Assembly (NCBI GenBank): GCA_016192685.1
Contig: JACPTS010000001.1
Span: 161,710-225,709 of the forward strand
DNA: 64,000 bases
Origin: Candidatus Harrisonbacteria bacterium
GTDB taxonomy: Bacteria; Patescibacteriota; Minisyncoccia; UBA6257; 02-FULL-45-10c
Direction of reading: 5' to 3'
This document shows, piece by piece, positions 4,024 through 64,000 of this stretch; the first letter of the stretch is position 1, and each line of letters begins with the position of its first letter. A model generated the notes under the pieces. That model worked only from the letters and a program-made list of their open reading frames with translations. It made no database searches and was not told the origin of the DNA. The position numbers were made by a program, and so were the translations under genes.

Positions 4024-5870
4024 TTTTGAGCGATATAAATCGGAAATTTATCCAAAAAAGCCAGCGCGAATTCCGGCGCGATTAATAATTTTCTTCCGTT
4101 CCCGATTATTTTAACATCTTTAAAACCCGATCTCAAAAGAGATTTCTTTTCTCCCCAAAGATTATTATAATATTGGGTTACTTTTCCAAAATCATACCTC
4201 TCAATTCTCCAGTGCGGACCGATTTTTAATCTGCCGATATTATTCAAAAATATCCTCCGGCTGGTTTTTGTTCTGGGGATGCAAAGACCGTTGTGGCTGG
4301 AATAAATTAAAACTCCGCCGGGCCTCAAAACTCTCTTCATTTCTTTTATGGCATTTTCCCTTTCTTCCAAAGAAGGCAGATTATCTATTCCATTGAACGA
4401 AAAAAATACGGCATCAAAACTATTGTCTTTAAAATCCAGCTTTCTGGCGTCCATCGCCCTGAAATCAATGCTTGGATAGTCTTTTTGGGCTTGCTCAATT
4501 AAAGGGAGAGAAATATCAACGCCAATAACCCCGCACCCGTTTTTAAAAATATAATAAGTAGTCCTGCCGGCTCCGCATCCGACATCCAATACCCGGGAAC
4601 CGGCCGGCATATATTTTTTAATTACATATTCTTCGCCCGGACGCAAATATTTTTTTGAATATTCCTTAACTGAAAGTTCGGAAGAAAAAGAACGGGTATT
4701 TTCCAGGCCGATTTCAGTTATCTGATTTTTGGAAATTCGTTCAATAAAAGCCAGAATGCTTTCCACTCTTTTTTGCCAGGTATATTTTTTAACATCAATC
4801 AAAGCTTGGGCAACAAGGCCTTCTGAAAAATCGCGGTTTTCAAAAATTTTGATTATAGCCGCGGCCAGATCTGATGGACTGTTCGGAGAAATTAATACGG
4901 AATTATGATTATTAAAAATCTCTTTGAGCGAGGGTAAATTAGTGGTAATAATCGGCCGGCCGGAAGCCATATATTCAAAAACTTTAAGCGGCGACATATA
5001 AAAATTATAATGTTCGTTTTCCGGAAAAGGGGCGATCAAAACATCAAAGGCCCTTAAATATAACGGAATCAAATCGTGTTTTACCATGCCGACAAAAATA
5101 ATTCTGTCTTCTAAATTTCTTGTTTTGGCCTCATTTTTATAAAATTTTATGTCGTCTTCGTGACCTCCCACTAAAACCATAAGAATATCCCGGTGATTTC
5201 TTAAATCAGCAAGAGCCCCAATAGCCGTATCAATGCCTTTTTCCATACCCAAAGTTTTTAACATTCCCGCGTAACCGATGATTTTTTTATCCAATGGCAG
5301 ATTTAATTTCTTTCGGCATTCATCCTTGGTCAAATTAATATTAAATTTTTCCAAATCCACCGCATCAGGCGCAACCAAAATCTTATCAGGAGCTATTCCC
5401 AATTTTACCAATCGCTCTTTTATAAAACTGGTTAAAACAACCAGAGCCTTGGCGCGTCTCATAACCAGCAAATAAAAATTACCGGCGCCCCTGGACAAAG
5501 AATGAACCTCTAAAACAACGCCGCTAAAAAATATCCCGGCGGCCGGCTCTCTGGAATAAAGCAAGTCGTAGTTGGAGAATAAAAGTCTTAATCTGGAAAT
5601 CAATAAAAAACTGTATAGCTGTATAAAAAACGCTATCCGGCTGCCCATAAACCATGGGAAAAGATCCAGACAAAATATTTTTTTTATTAAAAAATTTTTC
5701 TTTATTCCATAATGGTCAAAAGGGTCCTGTTCTTTCTCTATTCTCCTGGGAACCCAAAGCTCAACTTCACAGCCATTTTCCGCGAAAGCCGAGCACATCT
5801 GCATCACTTGAAAACCATGCGCCAAATTGGTGGGCAATCTTGAATTAGAAATATAAATCAGCTTTTTCAT
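4020..5870 (-). CDS. bifunctional GT4 glycosyltransferase (N-terminal) fused to a class I SAM-dependent methyltransferase (C-terminal)
   Basis: GT4 motif EYMASGRPIITTNLPSL; C-terminal VLDVGCGAGRTTYYIF...DNSFDAVFF...LRPGGVLIY (methyltransferase motifs I-III). Confidence 0.7.
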   Translation of the reverse strand: MKKLIYISNSRLPTNLAHGFQVMQMCSAFAENGCEVELWVPRRIEKEQDPFDHYGIKKNFLIKKIFCLDLFPWFMGSRIAFFIQLYSFLLISRLRLLFSNYDLLYSREPAAGIFFSGVVLEVHSLSRGAGNFYLLVMRRAKALVVLTSFIKERLVKLGIAPDKILVAPDAVDLEKFNINLTKDECRKKLNLPLDKKIIGYAGMLKTLGMEKGIDTAIGALADLRNHRDILMVLVGGHEDDIKFYKNEAKTRNLEDRIIFVGMVKHDLIPLYLRAFDVLIAPFPENEHYNFYMSPLKVFEYMASGRPIITTNLPSLKEIFNNHNSVLISPNSPSDLAAAIIKIFENRDFSEGLVAQALIDVKKYTWQKRVESILAFIERISKNQITEIGLENTRSFSSELSVKEYSKKYLRPGEEYVIKKYMPAGSRVLDVGCGAGRTTYYIFKNGCGVIGVDISLPLIEQAQKDYPSIDFRAMDARKLDFKDNSFDAVFFSFNGIDNLPSLEERENAIKEMKRVLRPGGVLIYSSHNGLCIPRTKTSRRIFLNNIGRLKIGPHWRIERYDFGKVTQYYNNLWGEKKSLLRSGFKDVKIIGNGRKLLIAPEFALAFLDKFPIYIAQK

Positions 5871-20261: not shown

Positions 20262-21362
20262 CTACCTAATTAATTCCGTAAATTTATTTATGGCATTAAG
20301 AATATCATAACGCTTAACCCAATCCTTTAAAGATTGTTTTATTTTCTCCAATTCTTCCGGTTTCTTAGAAAGAATTTCCGCTATTTTTAAGGAAAATTTT
20401 TCTGTATCGTTGGCTTTGACCAAGTAGTTATGCATTAGAGGCGGGATGATATCACGAACCGCGCCAACATCGGTCGCAACAAATGGCACGCCGGTAGCCA
20501 TTGACTCTAAAATAACATGAGGGAATCCTTCCTCGTCTGACGGCATAATAAAAACATCCGCAATGGCAAAATACCGCAACACTTCATTTTGCGGAATCCA
20601 ACCCAACATCCGAACCTTATCCCGTAATTCATAATTCCTGATTCCTAATTCTATATTTTCACGTTCTGGCCCGTCGCCGATTATAAGAATAACAAATGAT
20701 GAATTATGAATAATGAAATTTAATTTTTTTGCGATTTCCGGCAAATAATGCGCCCCTTTTCGTTTTGACAACCGATGCGCAAACAAAATCACTTTTTTAT
20801 CATTATCAATTTGCAGTTTCTTTCTCAATTCACCGCTTGTCGCTTGCCGCATGTCGCTTGTCACTTGCTCAATATTTATCCAATTAGGCATTATTTTTAT
20901 TTTTTTAATCGGGATACCGTAATATTCAGAATAATTTTTAGCTAACGACTCGGTGCCGGTCACAAAAAAACTTATTGATTTATAAACGGCTCTTTCAAAA
21001 CTTTCCCTGAAAATATTTCTTTTATATTTCCATGGTTCACCGCAATTCCAATAAAATACCCGCCCGCCGAAAACCTTTACTGCCAAAGACGCCATAAAAG
21101 CTCCTAAAAAAGAATAATGGACATAAAAGTCTTTATATCCGCGAAAACGCGCGTATAACAGATTACCCAGCATCCTAATGAATCGTATCGGCCAAAAATC
21201 ATAGAAAAAAACCTGGGTTTTCTCCGTAATTAAATAAATATTAAAATTTTTTTTAAGCTCATTTAGAAAATTGCCTAGGTAAGCAAAATGGGTGTGGTCG
21301 TTTTTTTTAAATTCCCGCACCAGATAACACAATTTGATTCTTCCCGTAAAATCTTTTTTCAT
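20262..21362 (-). CDS. GT4 family glycosyltransferase
   Basis: MPSDEEGFPHVILESMATGVPFVATDVG. Confidence 0.8.
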   Translation of the reverse strand: MKKDFTGRIKLCYLVREFKKNDHTHFAYLGNFLNELKKNFNIYLITEKTQVFFYDFWPIRFIRMLGNLLYARFRGYKDFYVHYSFLGAFMASLAVKVFGGRVFYWNCGEPWKYKRNIFRESFERAVYKSISFFVTGTESLAKNYSEYYGIPIKKIKIMPNWINIEQVTSDMRQATSGELRKKLQIDNDKKVILFAHRLSKRKGAHYLPEIAKKLNFIIHNSSFVILIIGDGPERENIELGIRNYELRDKVRMLGWIPQNEVLRYFAIADVFIMPSDEEGFPHVILESMATGVPFVATDVGAVRDIIPPLMHNYLVKANDTEKFSLKIAEILSKKPEELEKIKQSLKDWVKRYDILNAINKFTELIR

Positions 21363-31775: not shown

Positions 31776-33461
31776 TTATAACTTAAATTTATAAACCGTA
31801 AACATTAAAAGATTATCATAGCCATAGATTGTTTTTACAGGGCTTAGGCGCAATTCTTGATTCAAAAATAATTCCAAATCTTCAGCGGCATTAGAATGAA
31901 ATATCGGATTCAAATACGTCTTCCGGCTTGCTTTGGCAAAATAAATATCATAGCCGTCAAATCGGCTAGCGCCGTCTTTTAAAAAATTTTTAAATTGAGT
32001 TACCGTAAAACTTGGGAAGCCGGAATAATACGTGCGCCTGGTAAAAACCCAAAGCCGCGGCGACAAAGCTATATTTTCATCATAAATAATAATGGTTGAT
32101 TTTTCGCTGGCCGGAATCCGCCGGGCGTTCATTTTAAGAAGGCGGTCTAAATGCGGATTGGAAGAAGCCGGAATGGCCAATGACCGTTTCTGGCCCAATT
32201 CAACATCAAAATAATGGTCTAAAGCAGCTATCCCAAAATCCGGAAAGGTCAGAAAAATATCAATCGCAAAAAATAATTCGTAAGCCAAAAAGGTAACCAA
32301 TAAAATCTTAAATAGAACTTCTTTGTGGAATTTAGAATATAAATAATCAAAAAAGTAAGCAATAAGCATAGCCGCGGGCGCGGCATATAAAACGATAAAG
32401 CGGAATGCCGAGCCGATTTTAATAAGCATTAGAGTAATAAAAATAAAATTAAGCAGCCAAAAAATTAAATAATTCTCATTGGTCTTATTAGTCCTATAGG
32501 ACTTATAGGTCCGATAAGCCGCCCAACCGATCCCAGTTAAGGCCGCCAAAAGAAACGGAATAGAATACATCAATGTCAAATTAGAAATAATCTCCGAAAA
32601 GGGGTCTTGAATTTTTCCTAATGACGCCCGCCATTCAGGAGTTGGCTGATTAAATACATACGCAAACTGCAAATCAAAATGGCCAACCGTCTGCCAAAGA
32701 TAAAAATTGTAAATCAAAACTGGACTAAACAATAAAAACGCTAAACCGAAAGCGGAGAACAAATAGGCCCAATCAGTCCTATCAGACCTATTGGTCCAGT
32801 AAGTCTTATAAGTCCAATAAGTTAGATAAACCGGCACCAAGAAAATACTCGTGTATTTTGTTAAAAAAGCAAGGCCGAGCGTCATGCCGAATAGCCACCA
32901 ATCTTTGGAGGTTCGACCTCCATTGGAGGTCGAACCTCCCCAAAGTTTAAAAAAATAATAAATGTTTAAAAGGATGAAAAAAATCTGGACTGATTCAAAT
33001 AAACTGGAACGGGAAATCCAGATATGAATCAAACTGAGAGAAAGCAGCAGAGGCGCGAAAAATTTTGACAATGAATTTATGAAAACTCTCTCTGATAATA
33101 GATAAACCAAATAAATTGATAAAATGCCGGCAATCGCCGACGGCAAACGGGCGACAAAAAGCGAATTTCCAAAAATTTTAAAAAATAGATTCTGGATTAA
33201 AAAAAAGAGCGGAGGATGGTCATGAAAGGAAAGATGCGTCCACCAAGGCAAGACCGCTGCGTCTTTAAACCATTGGATCGGCGCGGTTTGGTCGTCATTT
33301 TGGATATAATCCAGATAGCCGATGGAACGAAATGCGGTAAAGCCCTCGTCGTGGTAAAATTCCGAAGAACCAAGCCCCCAAAATCGCAAAAGCGCGGCTA
33401 AAAAAAGAATCGCGATTAAGACCTGTTTTTCGGTAATTTTATATCCAAAGATAGTAAACAT
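31776..33461 (-). CDS. GT-C protein O-mannosyltransferase-like (PMT/ArnT family)
   Basis: YHDEGFTAFRSIGY DE motif; LFVARLPSAIAGILSIYLVYLL; LGLAFLTKYTSIF; carries a 33-nt perfect GC-rich palindrome insert (32903..32945) that the paralog lacks. Confidence 0.7.
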   Translation of the reverse strand: MFTIFGYKITEKQVLIAILFLAALLRFWGLGSSEFYHDEGFTAFRSIGYLDYIQNDDQTAPIQWFKDAAVLPWWTHLSFHDHPPLFFLIQNLFFKIFGNSLFVARLPSAIAGILSIYLVYLLSERVFINSLSKFFAPLLLSLSLIHIWISRSSLFESVQIFFILLNIYYFFKLWGGSTSNGGRTSKDWWLFGMTLGLAFLTKYTSIFLVPVYLTYWTYKTYWTNRSDRTDWAYLFSAFGLAFLLFSPVLIYNFYLWQTVGHFDLQFAYVFNQPTPEWRASLGKIQDPFSEIISNLTLMYSIPFLLAALTGIGWAAYRTYKSYRTNKTNENYLIFWLLNFIFITLMLIKIGSAFRFIVLYAAPAAMLIAYFFDYLYSKFHKEVLFKILLVTFLAYELFFAIDIFLTFPDFGIAALDHYFDVELGQKRSLAIPASSNPHLDRLLKMNARRIPASEKSTIIIYDENIALSPRLWVFTRRTYYSGFPSFTVTQFKNFLKDGASRFDGYDIYFAKASRKTYLNPIFHSNAAEDLELFLNQELRLSPVKTIYGYDNLLMFTVYKFKL

Positions 33462-41703: not shown

Positions 41704-41769
41704 CTACTTTTTAGTATAACATTTACATTATAGCAGTAGTTTTAGCACTCTGTCAATGGGAGTGCTAAT

Positions 41770-41980
41770 CGGCTCAGCCGGTAACTCTTTCCTCAACCCG
41801 TTTCGCGAATCCAGCGATTCGCTCACTTGTGCTCGTCGTTTCGTCGCTCGGTTTAAATTAAGAACGAGCGGACCATGCCGAAGCGACTGCGCGGGTTTCG
41901 GAGAAAAGTTACCGGCTTCGCCTCTTTATTGGGAAATTTAAAAATAAAAAAACCGCCAAACGAGTTGGCGATTTTTTTCT
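41770..41980 (+). ncRNA. putative structured small RNA of unknown class (long closing stem, internal hairpins, intrinsic terminator)
   Basis: GC-enriched; agccggtaactctttcctc (41776..) pairs with ggagaaaagttaccggct (41903..); internal hairpins gcgaatc-cagc-gattcgc and gctcgtcg...cgagcgg; terminator cgccaaacgagttggcg followed by a T-run at 41945..41980; no ORF. Not SRP, tmRNA or RNase P by motif. Confidence 0.3.
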
Positions 41981-43181: not shown

Positions 43182-44540
43182 TTATAACACGCGCATTAAA
43201 ACTTTAGTCAATCGGTCAATTTCAGCTTTGGTAGTCGGCCGGCCGAAAGTGAATCGCAGACTGCTCATCGCCCGCTCTTCACTATGCCCCATAGCAGTTA
43301 AAACATGCGACGGCTGGCAGGTACGCGCAGTACAGGCGGATCCCGGAGAAACCGCGAAACCGGCCAAATCTAATTTGATAAGCAATTCTTGCGCCGCACT
43401 GCCTGGAAAATAAAAATTAAGATTATTCGGATTTCTTTTTTCCAAATCTTCCGGACCGTTCAATTTTGCTTTGGGCGCGATTTTTTTCATCCGCGCCAAA
43501 AAATACTCCTGCAATTTCCGCAATCTCTTATTTTCTGAATTTCTTGATTTCTCAACCAATTCCACTGCTTTTCCAAATCCGACAATGGCCGGCACATTTT
43601 CTGTCCCGCCCCGCAAGCCGTATTCTTGTTGGTTACCACCGGTAATAATCGGATGAAGCATAAAACTTGAAGCATGAAACATTTCTTTTTGTTTCAAGTT
43701 ACGTGTTTCATGTTTCATGAAAAGTGCGCCAGCTCCTTTTGGCCCATAAATTTTTTGCGCCGATAGCGTCAGTAAATCCACGCCCAACTCATTAACATCG
43801 CAATTTAAATAATTGAAAGCTTGGACGGCATCGGTGTGCAGCAATGGATATGCCATTGCTGAACTTTTAACATTTAACTTTTGACTTTTAACTTCTCTAA
43901 AATTTCGGATAATCTCCGAAATTTTAGAGATTGGCTGAATAATTCCCACTTCATTATTCACATACATCGCGGAAACTAAAATAGTCCGCTCGTCCAACGC
44001 ATCTTTCAGCTTTTTCAAATCCACTAATCCATTTTTATCTACAGGCAGATAAACCACCTCTACGCCGTCTTTCTCTAAGTCTCGCGCGGTTTCTAAAATA
44101 GAATCGTGCTCAATAGAAGAAACAATTATTTTAGGTAAAAATGGTTCAGCTGTTTTCGTGCGGAAACTACGGAGCTCCGATTTGCTTGGTTCCGCCGAAG
44201 GCGGAAAATCGGAGCGAGGCGTAGCGGGCTCTCGCCGCTGGAGCGAGAGAACCGCGGTTCCGGTAGAAAATTGCTGAACCATTTTCACCGCGCCCCGCAG
44301 CGCCAAGTTATTTGCTTCAGTTGCTGAGCTCGTAAAAATTATTTCCCGATAATTTGCGCCAATAGATTTCGCAACGATATCACGTGCCTGAAAAATCGCT
44401 GCCGAAGCTTCCTGCCCAAACCAATGCAAAGCCCCGGGATTGCCGAATTTTTTAGACCAGTACGGCTCCATCGCCTTTTTCACTCGCGAGTCCAGCGGCG
44501 TCCCAGCCGCGTAATCAAAATAATAACGTTTCAGCCTCAT
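43182..44540 (-). CDS. iscS: cysteine desulfurase (IscS/NifS family, class V aminotransferase), with about 45-aa and about 14-aa in-frame inserts
   Basis: YFDYAAGTP, SSATEANNLA, LLHTDAVQA, SAQKIYGPKGAGALF, class V fold; inserts at 44141..44282 (GC-rich element) and 43650..43720, 43865..43900 (AT-rich repeats). Confidence 0.85.
   Translation of the reverse strand: MRLKRYYFDYAAGTPLDSRVKKAMEPYWSKKFGNPGALHWFGQEASAAIFQARDIVAKSIGANYREIIFTSSATEANNLALRGAVKMVQQFSTGTAVLSLQRREPATPRSDFPPSAEPSKSELRSFRTKTAEPFLPKIIVSSIEHDSILETARDLEKDGVEVVYLPVDKNGLVDLKKLKDALDERTILVSAMYVNNEVGIIQPISKISEIIRNFREVKSQKLNVKSSAMAYPLLHTDAVQAFNYLNCDVNELGVDLLTLSAQKIYGPKGAGALFMKHETRNLKQKEMFHASSFMLHPIITGGNQQEYGLRGGTENVPAIVGFGKAVELVEKSRNSENKRLRKLQEYFLARMKKIAPKAKLNGPEDLEKRNPNNLNFYFPGSAAQELLIKLDLAGFAVSPGSACTARTCQPSHVLTAMGHSEERAMSSLRFTFGRPTTKAEIDRLTKVLMRVL
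44141..44282. repeat. GC-rich multi-hairpin palindromic element, copy A (in frame within iscS)
   Basis: Closing inverted repeat atggttcagc/gctgaaccat; internal hairpins ctccgattt...aaatcggag, ttccgcc-gaa-ggcggaa, ctctcgc-cgctg-gagcgagag; conserved aactacgga, gaggcgtag, cgctggag, ccggt..atagaaa. Confidence 0.8.
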
Positions 44541-46023: not shown

Positions 46024-47421
46024 TTAGACTATAATCAACTTTTTCAGATTTTGCAACTCCTTATTTAAAATATTTTTATCCGTCGATTCTATATTCAAAC
46101 GCAATAAATTTTCTGTATTGGAGGGACGAAGATTGAACCAATAATCTGAAAACTCTATTGTAAGCCCATCTAAACTTAGAATCTGCTTTGCTCCTTGCCG
46201 ATATCTCATTTCAACTGCCCGAAGAACTTTTTCTTTATCCCGAACTTCAAAATTCAGCTCGCCGGAGCGGTAGTATCTCGGCAATTTATCCAACCAACTG
46301 GCCAAATCCCCCTTCAAGGCAGAAACAAAATTTATTACTTCAATCGCCGCTAAAATTCCGGAATCGCAGTAAAAGAATTTTTTAAAGTAGTAATGCCCGG
46401 AATGTTCCAATCCTAAAGAAGCTTTCTTCTCACGCATTAATTTTTTGAAAAAATAATGGCCGACTCGAGAAATAATCGCGCCTTTTACTTTAATGCGTTT
46501 GCTGGATACTACTCCTACCACATAAGGCGATGGAAAAAGTTTTGTTAAAATATAAGCGCTTTCGTTCGGGTCAATCCACCGGCCGCGATTATCTATAAAA
46601 AATACCCTATCTCCGTCCGCGTCAAAAATCACCCCCAGATCGGCCTTTTGTTTTTTTACTTCTTTTTCCAATTGGCCAGTTGCGCCTTTTAAAAGCGGAT
46701 TCGGCCCATGCGCCGGAAAATTCCCGTCCGGATTGTCATTTATAAAAATTGTCGTTAGTTGTTTGTTGTTAGTTGTAAGTTGCCGCAATATGCGGCCGGT
46801 TGTGCCATTGGAACAATCAAAAACCACTTTTAATTTTCGTTTGGGTTTTAAAAATTTTTTAAGAAAATAAGAATACAAGGATATATCGGATTTGCCTGCG
46901 TTTCGTACGGCAACTACGGAGCCGCCAAAAGATTGGTCTCGCCGAAGGCGAGTTTTGGCGGCGAGGCGTAGGCGCGCTCCGCCGCTGGAGCGGAGCGACG
47001 CCGGTGCCGATAGAAATGCAGGCGAAGCCGATACTAATTTCAAAATTTCCTTACCGCTGATTGGCCGCGCATTTTTACCAACTACCTTTAAACCGTTATA
47101 ATTTTTAGGATTGTGAGAAGCGGTTACCATAATCCCGCCATCGGCTTTCAATTTATTAACCAAAAAATAAAGCGTCGGGGTAGTCATAATTCCTACAGAA
47201 ATAACTTTTAACTTGTAACTTTTAACTTTTAACCCGCTAGTAACTGCTTTATATAATGTAGGTGAACTTAACCGGCCATCGCGGCCAACAATTATTTTTG
47301 CCCGCCCGCCAAAATGTTTCCCAACCGCCGCGGCGATTTGAAAAGCTGTTTCCTCATTTAATTCTTCCGGGTATTTCCCCCGGACATCGTAAGCTTTAAA
47401 AATTTTTGGTTCTATCGGCAT
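46024..47421 (-). CDS. pgm: phosphoglucomutase/phosphomannomutase (alpha-D-phosphohexomutase), with an in-frame GC-rich element insert
   Basis: KAYDVRG, IMVTASHNPKNYNGLKV, GVIFDADGDRVFFID, GLEHSGHYYF. The ORF-track start at 47550 is probably too early; MPIEPKIFKAYDVRG at 47421 fits the family. Confidence 0.85.
   Translation of the reverse strand: MPIEPKIFKAYDVRGKYPEELNEETAFQIAAAVGKHFGGRAKIIVGRDGRLSSPTLYKAVTSGLKVKSYKLKVISVGIMTTPTLYFLVNKLKADGGIMVTASHNPKNYNGLKVVGKNARPISGKEILKLVSASPAFLSAPASLRSSGGARLRLAAKTRLRRDQSFGGSVVAVRNAGKSDISLYSYFLKKFLKPKRKLKVVFDCSNGTTGRILRQLTTNNKQLTTIFINDNPDGNFPAHGPNPLLKGATGQLEKEVKKQKADLGVIFDADGDRVFFIDNRGRWIDPNESAYILTKLFPSPYVVGVVSSKRIKVKGAIISRVGHYFFKKLMREKKASLGLEHSGHYYFKKFFYCDSGILAAIEVINFVSALKGDLASWLDKLPRYYRSGELNFEVRDKEKVLRAVEMRYRQGAKQILSLDGLTIEFSDYWFNLRPSNTENLLRLNIESTDKNILNKELQNLKKLIIV
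46894..47012. repeat. GC-rich multi-hairpin palindromic element, copy B (in frame within pgm)
   Basis: Closing inverted repeat gcctgc/gcaggc; hairpins ccgccaaaa...ttttggcgg, ctcgcc-gaa-ggcgag, gctccgc-cgctg-gcggagc. The same conserved single-stranded motifs as copy A, with compensatory changes in the stems. Confidence 0.8.
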
Positions 47422-54898: not shown

Positions 54899-55384
54899 TT
54901 ATTTATAAAGAATTAACCTTCTTGCATAGCCATGATCAACTTTTAATTTCTTGCCAATCTTCCTATAGGATAAACCCCGCCCTCTTAAAAATTTACAAGC
55001 TTTTATCTTTTTCTGCAAACATAATTTATTTTTAAATTGATTAGATACTATTTTTGCGACTATTGGAATAGTTTTTCGCGCAATACCTTTTTTAACTATT
55101 AAATAAGGGTAAATACTTTTAAGAAAAAATAGAACGTCTTTTTGGCGCGCGATGCAATATACCCAATTTTCTTTCCAATGAGGTTTTCTTTTTTTGGCCT
55201 TACAAATATTGCCCATCCCGGAAAAATCTTGAATTTCTTTTAAAACTCCCTCGTGGGTTTGGGGAATTGCAATACGATAATCATTTTTACCGTTTTTCAC
55301 TATATTTCCTTCCCCGTCTACAAATCCAGCTATATAACCCCAATTGATATTCATAATCCCAAGAATAACATATTCTGGTGACAA
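54899..55384 (-). CDS. free-standing LAGLIDADG homing endonuclease
   Basis: WGYIAGFVDGEGN (LAGLIDADG motif), 161 aa, basic C-terminus. Confidence 0.7.
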   Translation of the reverse strand: MSPEYVILGIMNINWGYIAGFVDGEGNIVKNGKNDYRIAIPQTHEGVLKEIQDFSGMGNICKAKKRKPHWKENWVYCIARQKDVLFFLKSIYPYLIVKKGIARKTIPIVAKIVSNQFKNKLCLQKKIKACKFLRGRGLSYRKIGKKLKVDHGYARRLILYK

Positions 55385-55990: not shown

Positions 55991-56163
55991 GCTAGAACAC
56001 TCGCCCTTCGGGCTCTTTGGAACCCAGCGGTTCCAACCCGAGCACATAAAGCATTATGTGCTCGGTGCCTCCGCCACGAGAAAACTCCCGTTTTCCCGAC
56101 CCCTTTCCCGTGTTCGATTCACCGCAAAAATTTAAAAACGGCATTCGCCGTTTTTAAATTTTG

Positions 56164-56464
56164 TGCCTGGGCGGTGAATCGAACACCGGACGCCAGCCTC
56201 TTCCAAGGCTAACTTGGACTATATCATCACCGAGCATATAAATTTTATATGCTCGGGCTAGGCGCTTCGTCCCGCAATGCGGGACTACTCCCCGAAAGGA
56301 TAGTCTCTACACCTTCAACGATTACAAAATCGAAGCTTGGCTCGGGATTCCCAAATAAAAATGTCATTTGACCTTCCCCGAATTCACCTAGTTTTTCAAC
56401 CCCGCTTACGCGGGGAAGCCCCAAAGAATTTGAGGGCTGCGCTCTACCACTGAGCTACCCAGGC
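56164..56464 (-). tRNA. tRNA-Phe (GAA) interrupted by a group I intron between positions 33 and 34 (5' exon 56464..56433, 3' exon 56203..56164)
   Basis: Exons fold into a cloverleaf: acceptor GCCTGGG/CCCAGGC, D-arm GCTC-AGTGGTA-GAGC, anticodon stem CAGCC/GGCTG, loop CT|GAAGA, T-arm CGGTG-TTCGATT-CACCG, A73. Confidence 0.7.
56204..56432 (-). mobile_element. group I intron (229 nt, no ORF) in the tRNA-Phe anticodon loop
   Basis: P1: exon GCCCU pairs with intron GGGGC, with U.G at the splice site. P10: intron UCUUU pairs with the 3' exon GAAGA. P7 elements AGAGACUA (R) and GAUAUAGUCC (S). Terminal G before the 3' exon. Confidence 0.7.
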
Positions 56465-56568
56465 ATAAATATAATTTAAACAAAATTGGCATTTAATTCA
56501 AGTTATTGACTTATTAAACTAACTGAAATATCTTTAAACTAACTTTAAAAACCGCATAAGAGTTTGTT

Positions 56569-62436: not shown

Positions 62437-62571
62437 TATGGTCTCTCCTCTTTCTATTATCGATTTACTATCTCATAGATTACTTTAACTGAATCGTTGC
62501 GTCAAGTTCAAAAAACAAAAAACCCCGCACTGTTAGTGACGGGGCAGACCACTGGGCGAACCCAAGAACAT

Positions 62572-62607
62572 TTGTCTAACCTTTTGCGATCGCAAAAGGT
62601 TAGACAA
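62572..62607. promoter_or_regulatory. 36-bp perfect palindrome centred on GATC (candidate operator/recognition site), flanked by two terminator-like hairpins (62523..62546 and 62625..62652)
   Basis: ttgtctaaccttttgcGATCgcaaaaggttagacaa. Confidence 0.4.
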
Positions 62608-62683
62608 ATCATCAAAAAAACAAAAACCCCCGTAAATTTCATACGGGGGTGGGGCACTGAGTTTATCCAAAGCGGTCTTGGAT

Positions 62684-62908: not shown

Positions 62909-63019
62909 TTCATCCCTCTTTTGGAATCTAAAAAGAGGATAACAAAACAATATTTAATTGTCAAATTCTAGAAAATTTAAATTCAACTAAACGAGGTTGA
63001 ATTTTCTAAAACTAAAATA

Positions 63020-63158
63020 AAACCAGCTTGCATGTTTCGTAGAGCAACTACGGAAGCGCCAAAAGATTGGTGTCCTGCGAAGCAGGACTTTTGGCGCTGA
63101 GGCGTAGGCGCGGTCGCCCGCTGGAGGCGACCGACGCCGGTGCTCATAGAAATATACG
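63020..63158. repeat. GC-rich multi-hairpin palindromic element, copy C (intergenic, 3' of rny)
   Basis: Closing inverted repeat aaaccagct/agctggttt; hairpins gcgccaaaa...ttttggcgc, gtcctgc-gaa-gcaggac, ggtcgcc-cgctg-gaggcgacc. Confidence 0.8.
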
Positions 63159-63187
63159 AGCTGGTTTTTAAAATTGGTTCGGAAAAA

Positions 63188-64000
63188 CTAACGAGCCACC
63201 TCCACTGCCCGCATCTCACGGATAACATTCACCTTAATCTCGCCCGGATATTTCATATCGGTCTGGATTTTATGGGCAATATTTTTTGCCAGTTCCAAAG
63301 CGCCAAAATCATCCACTTTTTCCGGAATCACGAAAACTCGCACTTCCCGTCCCGCGGAAAGCGCGTAAGCATTTTTCACGCCCGGAAAACCAGTGGCAAT
63401 TTTTTCCAAATCTCCCAGCCGCTTTATATAATTTTCCACTGTTCCCCTCCGGGCGCCCGGACGAGCCGCCGACAAAACATCGGCCGCGGTAACAATAAAT
63501 GATTCCGGATTGGAATAGGGATACTCTTCATGATGCGACTGCATGGCTTTAATAATTTCTTCATCAATGCCGTATTTTTGCAAAATTTTCCGGCCCAATT
63601 CCACGTGCGTTCCCTCCACTTCATGGTCAATGGCTTTCCCAATGTCATGAAGCAAAGCGCCTTTTTTCGCCACCTCAACCCGCGCTCCAAGCTCTGCCGC
63701 AATAATGGCGGAAATATGCGCCATTTCAATGGAATGGACTAAAACATTCTGGCCAAAACTGGTCCGGAAATAAAGCCGGCCCAAAAGCTGGATAATTTCT
63801 TTCGGCAAACCGACTACGCCGACTTCCAATGCCGTATTCTCGCCGATTTCCACCATTCGCTTATTTAACTCATTTTTCGCTTCTTCCACTTTTTCTTCAA
63901 TTTTTGCCGGCTGAATCCGGCCGTCCTTAATCAATCTCTCCAGCGCCATGCGCGCGGTTTCCCGGCGCAGCGGGTCAAAAGAAGAAAGCACAATCGTGTC
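63188..64000 (-). CDS. rny: ribonuclease Y (KH + HD domains), C-terminal part; the N-terminus lies beyond the window end
   Basis: HDIGKAIDHEVEGTHVELG (HD), ...AGREVRVFVIPEKVDD...YPGEIKVNVIREMRAVEVAR (RNase Y C-terminal signature). Confidence 0.85.
   Translation of the reverse strand, partial: DTIVLSSFDPLRRETARMALERLIKDGRIQPAKIEEKVEEAKNELNKRMVEIGENTALEVGVVGLPKEIIQLLGRLYFRTSFGQNVLVHSIEMAHISAIIAAELGARVEVAKKGALLHDIGKAIDHEVEGTHVELGRKILQKYGIDEEIIKAMQSHHEEYPYSNPESFIVTAADVLSAARPGARRGTVENYIKRLGDLEKIATGFPGVKNAYALSAGREVRVFVIPEKVDDFGALELAKNIAHKIQTDMKYPGEIKVNVIREMRAVEVAR

Follow-up and report, generated by a model that had tools for sequence, protein, structure and literature searches.

A family of GC-rich structured repeats in Paceibacteria-type genomes with copies between genes and, in frame, within conserved enzymes

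The subject of this report is a GC-rich structured repeat of ~150 nt that recurs in a 64,000-nt stretch of the genome of a Candidatus Harrisonbacteria bacterium from groundwater (contig JACPTS010000001.1, positions 161,710 to 225,709; hereafter, the window) and in the genomes of related members of the candidate phyla radiation (CPR). Its copies lie between genes and, in frame, within genes encoding conserved enzymes. As far as the searchable literature shows, the family is apparently undescribed. The explanation favored here, to which we assign a probability of roughly 0.55, is that of a non-autonomous element similar to the REP, ERIC, and Rickettsia palindromic (RPE) repeats, which has been spread and homogenized via a strand-specific single-stranded form.

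Three complete copies, designated A, B, and C, are located on the + strand of the window in iscS, in pgm, and 3' of rny, respectively (Table 1). These are the places at which a first-pass annotation, made from the letters of the window alone, had put them, but the palindromes are longer than described there, namely 156, 150, and 150 nt. The count of three was likewise correct for the complete copies and missed a fourth, degenerate relative on the - strand. The motif TTTCGTNNNGNAACTACGGA has three exact matches in comparison to 0.5 expected by chance, and the combination GAGGCGTAG-N11-CGCTGGAG has three in comparison to 0.02. The folding energies of complete copies, -75.8 and -81.6 kcal/mol, are far below those of shuffled sequences, with z scores of -7.0 and -8.2. 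The degenerate relative retains the long closing helix, an outer GCGA...GAGC module, and a hairpin whose loop reads CGCUGGA, and it has lost the junction motifs.

The overall architecture of the fold is that of a branched three-way junction. Helix P1 is a long closing helix specific to each copy (median 18 bp, range 12-24), the arms of which are related across copies and covary heavily. Tandem G.A pairs and an outer helix of 2-3 bp that also covaries, AGCGA...GAGCG, lengthen it in 23 of 74 copies. After a small internal loop there follows P2, a 5-bp helix that opens into the junction with P3 and P4. The long bulged hairpin P3 is composed of CUACG/CGUAG, a GA/GAGG internal loop, a 10-bp helix, a GNUUGGU bulge, and a terminal hairpin, and P4 is a short hairpin with the loop CCGCNGGAG. 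The conserved unpaired motifs of the family are AACUACGGA, GAGG-CGUAG, CCGCNGGAG, and CGGU. Indeed, the nucleotides conserved in 90% or more of the sequences are almost all unpaired (AACU-ACGGA, GAGG, CGUAG, GC.GGA, AC, and CGGU). Two assignments of the first-pass annotation had to be revised: 'gtttc' and 'gaaa', taken to be single-stranded, form the inner closing helix and covary in other genomes, and CUACG and CGUAG, also taken to be single-stranded, pair with each other.

That the stems differ among copies yet stay complementary had been noted for the window, and the larger sample bears this out. Compensatory changes occur in 40 of the 49 pairs of the consensus fold of 10 sequences, and in 72 distinct sequences 43 of the 49 pairs have changed on both sides. 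All 12 pairs of P1 show double changes. In the same 72 sequences, 97.9% of the pair cells are paired, as compared to 65.7% with shuffled partners and at most 42.5% with slid partners. The G.U and U.G pairs number 124 and the A.C and C.A combinations 18, and this bias is independent of the direction of the neighboring gene. The excess of G.U over A.C identifies the selected fold as that of the + strand as written in the window; the fold of one strand is thus under selection.

Several smaller features of the fold were also observed. The last pair of P2 is linked to the outer helix of P4, such that CGGC-A occurs with GGC/GGA and CGGA-A occurs with GCG, and each of the three best-conserved unpaired motifs holds GGAG, GAGG, or GGA. 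Together these might reflect tertiary contacts or the binding signature of a protein or of the ribosome. A kink-turn in the conserved GA/GAGG internal loop was considered and dropped upon inspection, given that, relative to the G.A pairs, the bulge is not on the side that a kink-turn requires.

An exact-pattern scan of species-representative genomes yielded seven more copies in four Patescibacteria metagenome-assembled genomes (MAGs), namely those of a Harrisonbacteria, a Colwellbacteria, a Paceibacter, and one unnamed bin. A covariance model was subsequently built from 10 sequences and searched against 59 metagenome loci, the genome loci, and the loci of IscS homologues. It returned 87 copies, 72 of them distinct, scoring 62-147 bits and stemming from 74 sources, which are Paceibacteria-type CPR assemblies. 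Within such genomes (Harrisonbacteria, Colwellbacteria, Paceibacter, and relatives) the element is dispersed at approximately one copy per 20-30 kb. Two subfamilies are found side by side across distant genomes. The same elements are present in independent NCBI, JGI, ENA, and Logan assemblies, and an assembly artifact, the possibility of which the first-pass annotation had raised, can be set aside. A second covariance model derived from the 87 hits found no further copies in the window. In a scan of viral contigs there were six pattern matches, none of which was confirmed by the covariance model. Searches of Rfam 15 with copies A and B and the relic upstream of clpB produced nothing at gathering scores, and what appeared at E values of 10 or less amounted to noise; resemblances to 5S rRNA, tRNA-like structures, and the signal recognition particle RNA were dropped for want of Rfam support, and an 8-mer in common with the complement of tRNA-Arg is attributed to chance.

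Table 1. Positions in the window of the repeat copies, the genes in or next to which they lie, and the clpB promoter.
Feature	Position	Strand	Remarks
Copy A, full palindrome, 156 nt	44134..44289	+	covariance-model core 44145-44277, 144 bits
Copy B, 150 nt	46884..47033	+	core 46892-47024, 147 bits
Copy C, 150 nt	63019..63168	+	core 63026-63160, 126 bits
Degenerate relative of the family	41771..41922	-	27 bits, E ~1e-4, fold z = -5.9
iscS/nifS-type cysteine desulfurase, 452 aa, host of copy A	43182..44540	-	open reading frame listing and homologue P0001 (Candidatus Harrisonbacteria)
Phosphoglucomutase/phosphomannomutase, host of copy B	46024..47421, longest open reading frame to 47550	-	open reading frame listing, Pfam
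HD-domain RNase Y-like gene (rny), 3' part	63188..63991	-	stop codon abuts copy C
clpB promoter, TTGACA-18-TATAAT	41727..41756	-	~15 nt separate it from the degenerate copy upstream; given for context, outside the element

Both genic copies of the window keep the reading frame open, as had been pointed out before. Copy A is antisense to iscS, and ~52 codons are read through it (KMVQQFSTG...RTKTAEPFLP). The resulting insert adds ~43-49 aa to IscS, in keeping with the ~45 aa claimed at the outset. Homologues of IscS span 384-493 aa, and their alignment places an insert at one and the same loop in the window protein and in six more. It is missing from P0003, an orthologue of 72% identity, and from many others, whereas P0006, P0009, and P0011 keep only ...SFRTKTAEPFLP. 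At the DNA level the remnant, as seen in locus L013, corresponds to the 5' arm of P1 and the 5' strand of P2 following an in-frame internal deletion. The AlphaFold model of IscS was too poor to place the insert (pLDDT 55), and an alignment with PDB sequences was used instead; the query has 53 residues where a solved IscS has 10. Toward distant orthologues the IscS copies score 138, 112, 98, 62, and 32 bits, and all are antisense and in frame.

Copy B, also antisense to its gene, is positioned in the linker between Pfam domains I and II of the phosphoglucomutase/phosphomannomutase (PGM). It is in frame, as claimed, and adds 50 aa rather than the ~40 aa first estimated. Between the same anchors the distance is 291 nt in the window and 142 nt in an orthologue with an empty site (L012), a difference of 150 nt when a 1-nt frameshift is allowed for. 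That orthologue is split into two open reading frames by the frameshift at this very site (L012 2700-2760), which could be a sequencing error, a pseudogene, or an excision scar. The element is also present at the PGM site in L013, and an unrelated AT-rich palindrome is found there in L014. With orthologues of both enzymes that are devoid of the segment, and with an IscS of L013 that carries only an in-frame remnant, the two inserts are true insertions.

Additional copies are in frame within mnmA, in antisense orientation (L006), and within alaS, in sense orientation (L053), so that two more genes join those in which a structured palindrome under selection for pairing lies in frame within a conserved enzyme; the RPE-like behavior proposed in the first-pass annotation is borne out. 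The four host genes are unrelated to one another, and between them both orientations are represented. Frames are open across copies at 24-47% per antisense frame and 0-58% per sense frame, and the frame in which the ~50 residues are encoded varies from copy to copy. In three of the four host genes (IscS, PGM, and MnmA), it is the strand antisense to the mRNA that folds better. An antisense bias of genic copies is not claimed, however, for there are three to four antisense events versus one sense event, and open frames are about equally frequent on both strands. Pfam reports only the domains of the host genes in PGM, MnmA, and AlaRS, with no intein features in the insert. When the 51-53 aa peptide was used to look for other insert-bearing proteins, a word index gave nothing, and a full HMMER scan gave one unrelated tandem-repeat protein.

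Since the frames remain intact through lengthened, shortened, and remnant copies, the genic insert is, to judge from sequence, translated rather than spliced. Removal after transcription or translation, by a miniature self-splicing intron, a self-cleaving ribozyme cassette, or a protein-splicing module, had been put forward as an alternative. The strong structure, the conserved nucleotides at the junction, the location in essential genes, and the presence of a true group I intron elsewhere in the window would all be in keeping with it, but we regard it as very improbable. No intron or ribozyme family of Rfam 15 is matched, even at E values of 10 or less; genic copies are always free of stop codons and in frame, including those with internal deletions or insertions and the remnant; the better fold is antisense to the message in IscS, PGM, and MnmA; and some 80% of the copies are not in genes at all. 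A protein-splicing module is further contradicted by the reading of the 50 residues in varying frames and by an insert that is far too small for an intein, which would measure at least ~130 aa, and lacks intein features. Still less credible, to the point of being negligible, is the notion that there is no element and that the segments represent ancestral protein sequence, chance similarity, or an assembly artifact: orthologues lack the segment, the very same motifs are found between genes, only 0.02 matches would be expected by chance, and many independent assemblies carry the element.

The family is multi-copy and dispersed, and the majority of copies are intergenic (~61 of 75 distinct contexts, or ~80%). 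Neither this majority nor how closely the copies hug stop codons could be seen in the first-pass annotation. The stop codon of a convergent gene lies 4-17 nt from the 3' end of 22 copies, and in seven copies an upstream stop codon on the same strand lies 11-19 nt from the 5' end; either orientation is found after stop codons. Copy C, for example, is situated ~20-28 nt past the stop codon of rny, to which it is antisense, and it has an orthologous counterpart in locus L028. The promoter of the next gene often begins 8-30 nt beyond a copy. Copies would be expected to hug gene ends in a genome with very short spacers if the stretch from stop codon to promoter were the only dispensable DNA. The TTGACA boxes that are found 8-30 nt downstream in 14 of the 75 contexts were considered as part of the element and rejected; they belong to the promoters of the next genes, such as CIRCE-regulated clpB. 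No promoter of the element itself was recognized, in that just one copy out of 72 is preceded by a match of at least 9/12, and the opposite side fares no worse. Nor do the copies resemble intrinsic terminators, for the 3' flanks of most of them lack T-runs. An orientation relative to replication was also rejected on the basis of opposite orientations within 22 kb of co-directional genes.

The degenerate copy of the window is placed between a separate, canonical terminator, which it follows, and the clpB promoter, and from this arrangement it would be little transcribed. The same position harbors intact copies in three syntenic relatives. The clpB promoter is itself a perfect TTGACA-18-TATAAT with an upstream TG and an overlapping CIRCE-like operator (TTAGCACTC-N9-GAGTGCTAA; window 41727-41770, - strand). 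Such an operator implies that clpB would be controlled by HrcA in this CPR bacterium.

Individual copies come and go. The IscS site is occupied in the window and in L012, retains a remnant in L013, and is empty in L014, whereas the PGM site is occupied in the window and in L013 and carries no copy in L012 and L014. Conversely, a copy at L012:12131 has no counterpart in the window. The helix modules are mosaic, with the P3b types combined with all types of P2 and P4, and in the L028 orthologue of copy C the P3b hairpin is that of another subfamily. This mosaicism points to gene conversion between copies, which is able to keep pairing intact without selection by the host. The same protein loops also accommodate unrelated AT-rich palindromes, and loops that collect several palindrome families are best regarded as permissive hot spots.

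On the basis of these observations, we envision that the family would be spread and kept intact through a strand-specific single-stranded form, either DNA or RNA, and that a putative trans-acting protein would recognize this form, much as RAYT recognizes REP/REPIN and IntI recognizes attC. Gene conversion between copies may assist, in which case individual copies would be largely neutral passengers. They would survive only at tolerant sites, namely the spacer between stop codon and promoter and, less often, the surface loops or interdomain linkers of a protein. At these protein sites, a copy that is free of stop codons and has a length that is a multiple of three is translated into ~50 extra residues.

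A number of findings weigh against this model. Neither the surroundings of any copy nor 20 open reading frames of the window yielded a transposase, recombinase, or reverse transcriptase, and there were no split copies or copies with an open reading frame in ~0.5 Mb of loci. Conserved terminal inverted repeats are absent, given that the P1 arms differ and covary. Target duplication is inconsistent: there is a possible TA at copy B and a possible TAAAAT at copy C, but copy A and the AGCGA...GAGCG copies show none. When aligned, the window copies have a mean column identity of only 74%, and thus there is no sign of recent transposition. The combination of conserved loops with variable helices is, moreover, what marks a functional RNA. 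The IscS copies of the window and L012 are 94% identical overall and 92.5% identical at third codon positions, whereas their flanks are 75% identical with 53-55% (~54%) at the neutral third positions, and the boundaries are sharp and coincide with those of the element. At third positions the element also exceeds its flanks in identity in L008 (68 versus 44%), in L009 (55 versus 47%), and in the PGM pair (65 versus 53%). In the comparison of copy C with L028, 31 of the 35 loop positions are identical, and the stems show 19 double changes and no single ones. The loop conservation, the excess identity of the IscS copy, and the loop and stem pattern of copy C suggest that individual copies may be under purifying selection.

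These same findings lend themselves to a different explanation, which we view as distinctly less probable than the model of a spreading repeat while taking it seriously. According to it, the element would be a strand-specific structured RNA or single-stranded DNA module that is useful to the host and kept by purifying selection at each locus, even in coding sequence. One variant sees in it a possible binding platform, as the motifs of the + strand resemble Shine-Dalgarno or CsrA-type sites and the complement displays the anti-Shine-Dalgarno CUCC/CCUC; another sees a possible 3'-end element for mRNA stability, ribosome release at stop codons, or insulation of transcription units. In addition to the conserved loops, the covarying helices, and the IscS copy, it can draw on the maintenance of pairing at orthologous sites, for at the IscS, PGM, clpB-upstream, and rny-3' sites the pairs of orthologues show 12-23 double changes and 0-5 broken pairs. 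It can also draw on the positions of copies within 20 nt of stop codons, on the occupation of the same place upstream of clpB in three relatives, and on the coexistence of two subfamilies across distant genomes.

Other observations fit poorly with a function at each locus. Copies have been lost, shortened, or degraded in close relatives with no obvious consequence. Copy C as a whole is 70% identical to its orthologue, about the same as the neutral neighboring sites (63-70%). Strong excess conservation is confined to one orthologous pair. The selected strand is mostly antisense to the adjacent or host mRNA, with no associated promoter, and both orientations follow stop codons. Finally, the swapping of modules can preserve pairing without selection at the level of the host. 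A broader form of this proposal is a new class of functional, strand-specific structured RNA or single-stranded DNA fold in CPR bacteria, with a dedicated protein or ribosomal partner, that would be held by purifying selection over essential coding sequence (with IscS and PGM dual-coding) and would spread without terminal repeats or target duplication; we consider it a shade more doubtful than function at each locus by itself. A small part of the probability, greater than that given to splicing, is reserved for explanations that have not been thought of.

How the family compares to known repeats bears on the choice among these readings. The RPEs are palindromic repeats of 105-146 bp without a transposase of their own, either intergenic or fused in frame with genes, translated, and tolerated, and together with ERIC and Correia elements they make up a class of 100-200 bp palindromic repeats found between genes and in frame within them (PMC2229807). 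The present element is likewise dispersed, in the ~100-150 bp class, and represented by both intergenic and in-frame copies (IscS, PGM, MnmA, and AlaRS); the likeness is one of behavior, and common descent is not claimed. In contrast to the RPEs, which are simple long stem-loops with 12-bp terminal inverted repeats, it displays a branched three-way junction, covarying termini, conserved internal loops, and a strand-specific G.U bias, and its hosts are CPR bacteria of the Paceibacteria type. It shares with ERIC/IRU, Correia/NEMIS, RUP, and BOX repeats a length of 100-200 bp, the pairing of 5' and 3' ends, a location in transcribed spacers in either orientation, and an occasional intragenic position. 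Those repeats have orientation-dependent effects on mRNA. They differ in having conserved terminal inverted repeats and TA target duplications, which are not evident here, and the copies described here are old and divergent rather than nearly identical. A classical bacterial miniature inverted-repeat transposable element was rejected for the absence of shared terminal inverted repeats and of an autonomous, transposase-bearing relative in ~0.5 Mb of loci and 20 window open reading frames; with its variable ends, conserved loops, and strand-specific G.U pairs, the conservation pattern is that of a structured RNA rather than of such an element.

REP and REPIN elements are GC-rich hairpins just downstream of genes, with GTAG beside the hairpin, whose enzyme recognizes a single-stranded fold, and, inherited vertically, they stay at orthologous sites for long periods. 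In the present family CGUAG directly precedes P4, and CUAC...GUAG flank P3. On the other hand, a REP is 20-40 nt long, a REPIN consists of two inverted REPs, and both are strictly extragenic, whereas a 150-nt three-way junction that enters genes is seen here; no Y1/HUH gene occurs among the 20 window open reading frames examined. In attC sites, structure is conserved over sequence, one strand is active when folded, and the site directly follows the stop codon of the preceding open reading frame, often in antisense. All of these traits recur here, but there is no integrase, cassette array, or pair of R/L boxes, the neighbors are housekeeping genes, and some copies are inside genes. The HEARO/IscB and IS605 TnpB omega RNAs are dispersed, covarying structured-RNA families that include copies without an open reading frame. 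The repeat described here differs from them in having no Rfam match and no adjacent IscB or TnpB open reading frame, and both of its ends form the closing helix, leaving no free guide segment.

CPR/Patescibacteria genomes are among the most streamlined known, yet those of the present lineage carry dozens of these 150-nt structured repeats, even inside IscS, PGM, MnmA, and AlaRS. 'Selfish DNA inside protein genes,' known mainly from Rickettsia, is thereby extended to a huge uncultivated radiation. With other coding palindromes, the element helps to explain the extra segments of CPR proteins and the varying lengths of orthologues. Given its very clear covariation (43/49 pairs, strand-specific G.U) and the absence of an Rfam counterpart, it is a target in the search for a new RNA- or single-stranded DNA-recognizing enzyme or a new noncoding RNA function. 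Applied to Paceibacteria MAGs, the covariance model would alert annotators to spurious open reading frames and insert-bearing genes.

Other in-frame palindromes were encountered in the course of this work. An AT-rich coding palindrome is located at 20627-20711 of the window in a glycosyltransferase-like open reading frame (20262-21362, - strand), with NFIIHNSSF and ELGIRNYEL as the translations of its arms. Inserts with the same peptide pair (IIHNSKFII / ELGIRN) are found again in homologues of IscS and PGM; the palindrome thus represents a second family of in-frame palindromic inserts. In the PGM orthologue of L014, an unrelated AT-rich palindrome is positioned exactly at the copy B linker and one of the IIHNSKFII type is elsewhere (5615-5697 and 5359-5433); this linker is a hot spot for different elements. 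Further repeat-like in-frame inserts are present in the IscS homologues P0004, P0009, P0013, P0015, P0018, P0022, and P0030. The sequence GLGFRVKGLENQNKKNNLYPNPSTLYP occurs at three different sites of P0013 alone, and NSKHEARNSKQIQNSKFQ...FRISDLQLV occurs in several other IscS homologues. The length heterogeneity of IscS orthologues in the CPR seems to arise largely from such inserts.

The group I intron mentioned above (Rfam Intron_gpI, 73 bits, 56194-56442) splits the anticodon loop of a tRNA-Leu(CAA)-like gene at 56160-56470 (- strand), which was not called by ARAGORN. An inverted partial copy of the T-arm and 3' end of this tRNA lies at 56106-56125, past a terminator-like hairpin. A free-standing open reading frame of 161 aa that resembles a LAGLIDADG-type homing endonuclease (weak Pfam match, 54899-55384, - strand) adjoins tRNA-His. 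Lastly, there are two perfect palindromes in the window, one at 32907-32939 (16+16 nt with a 1-nt spacer) and the other at 62570-62609 (20+20 nt without a spacer), the latter in the spacer region upstream of copy C.

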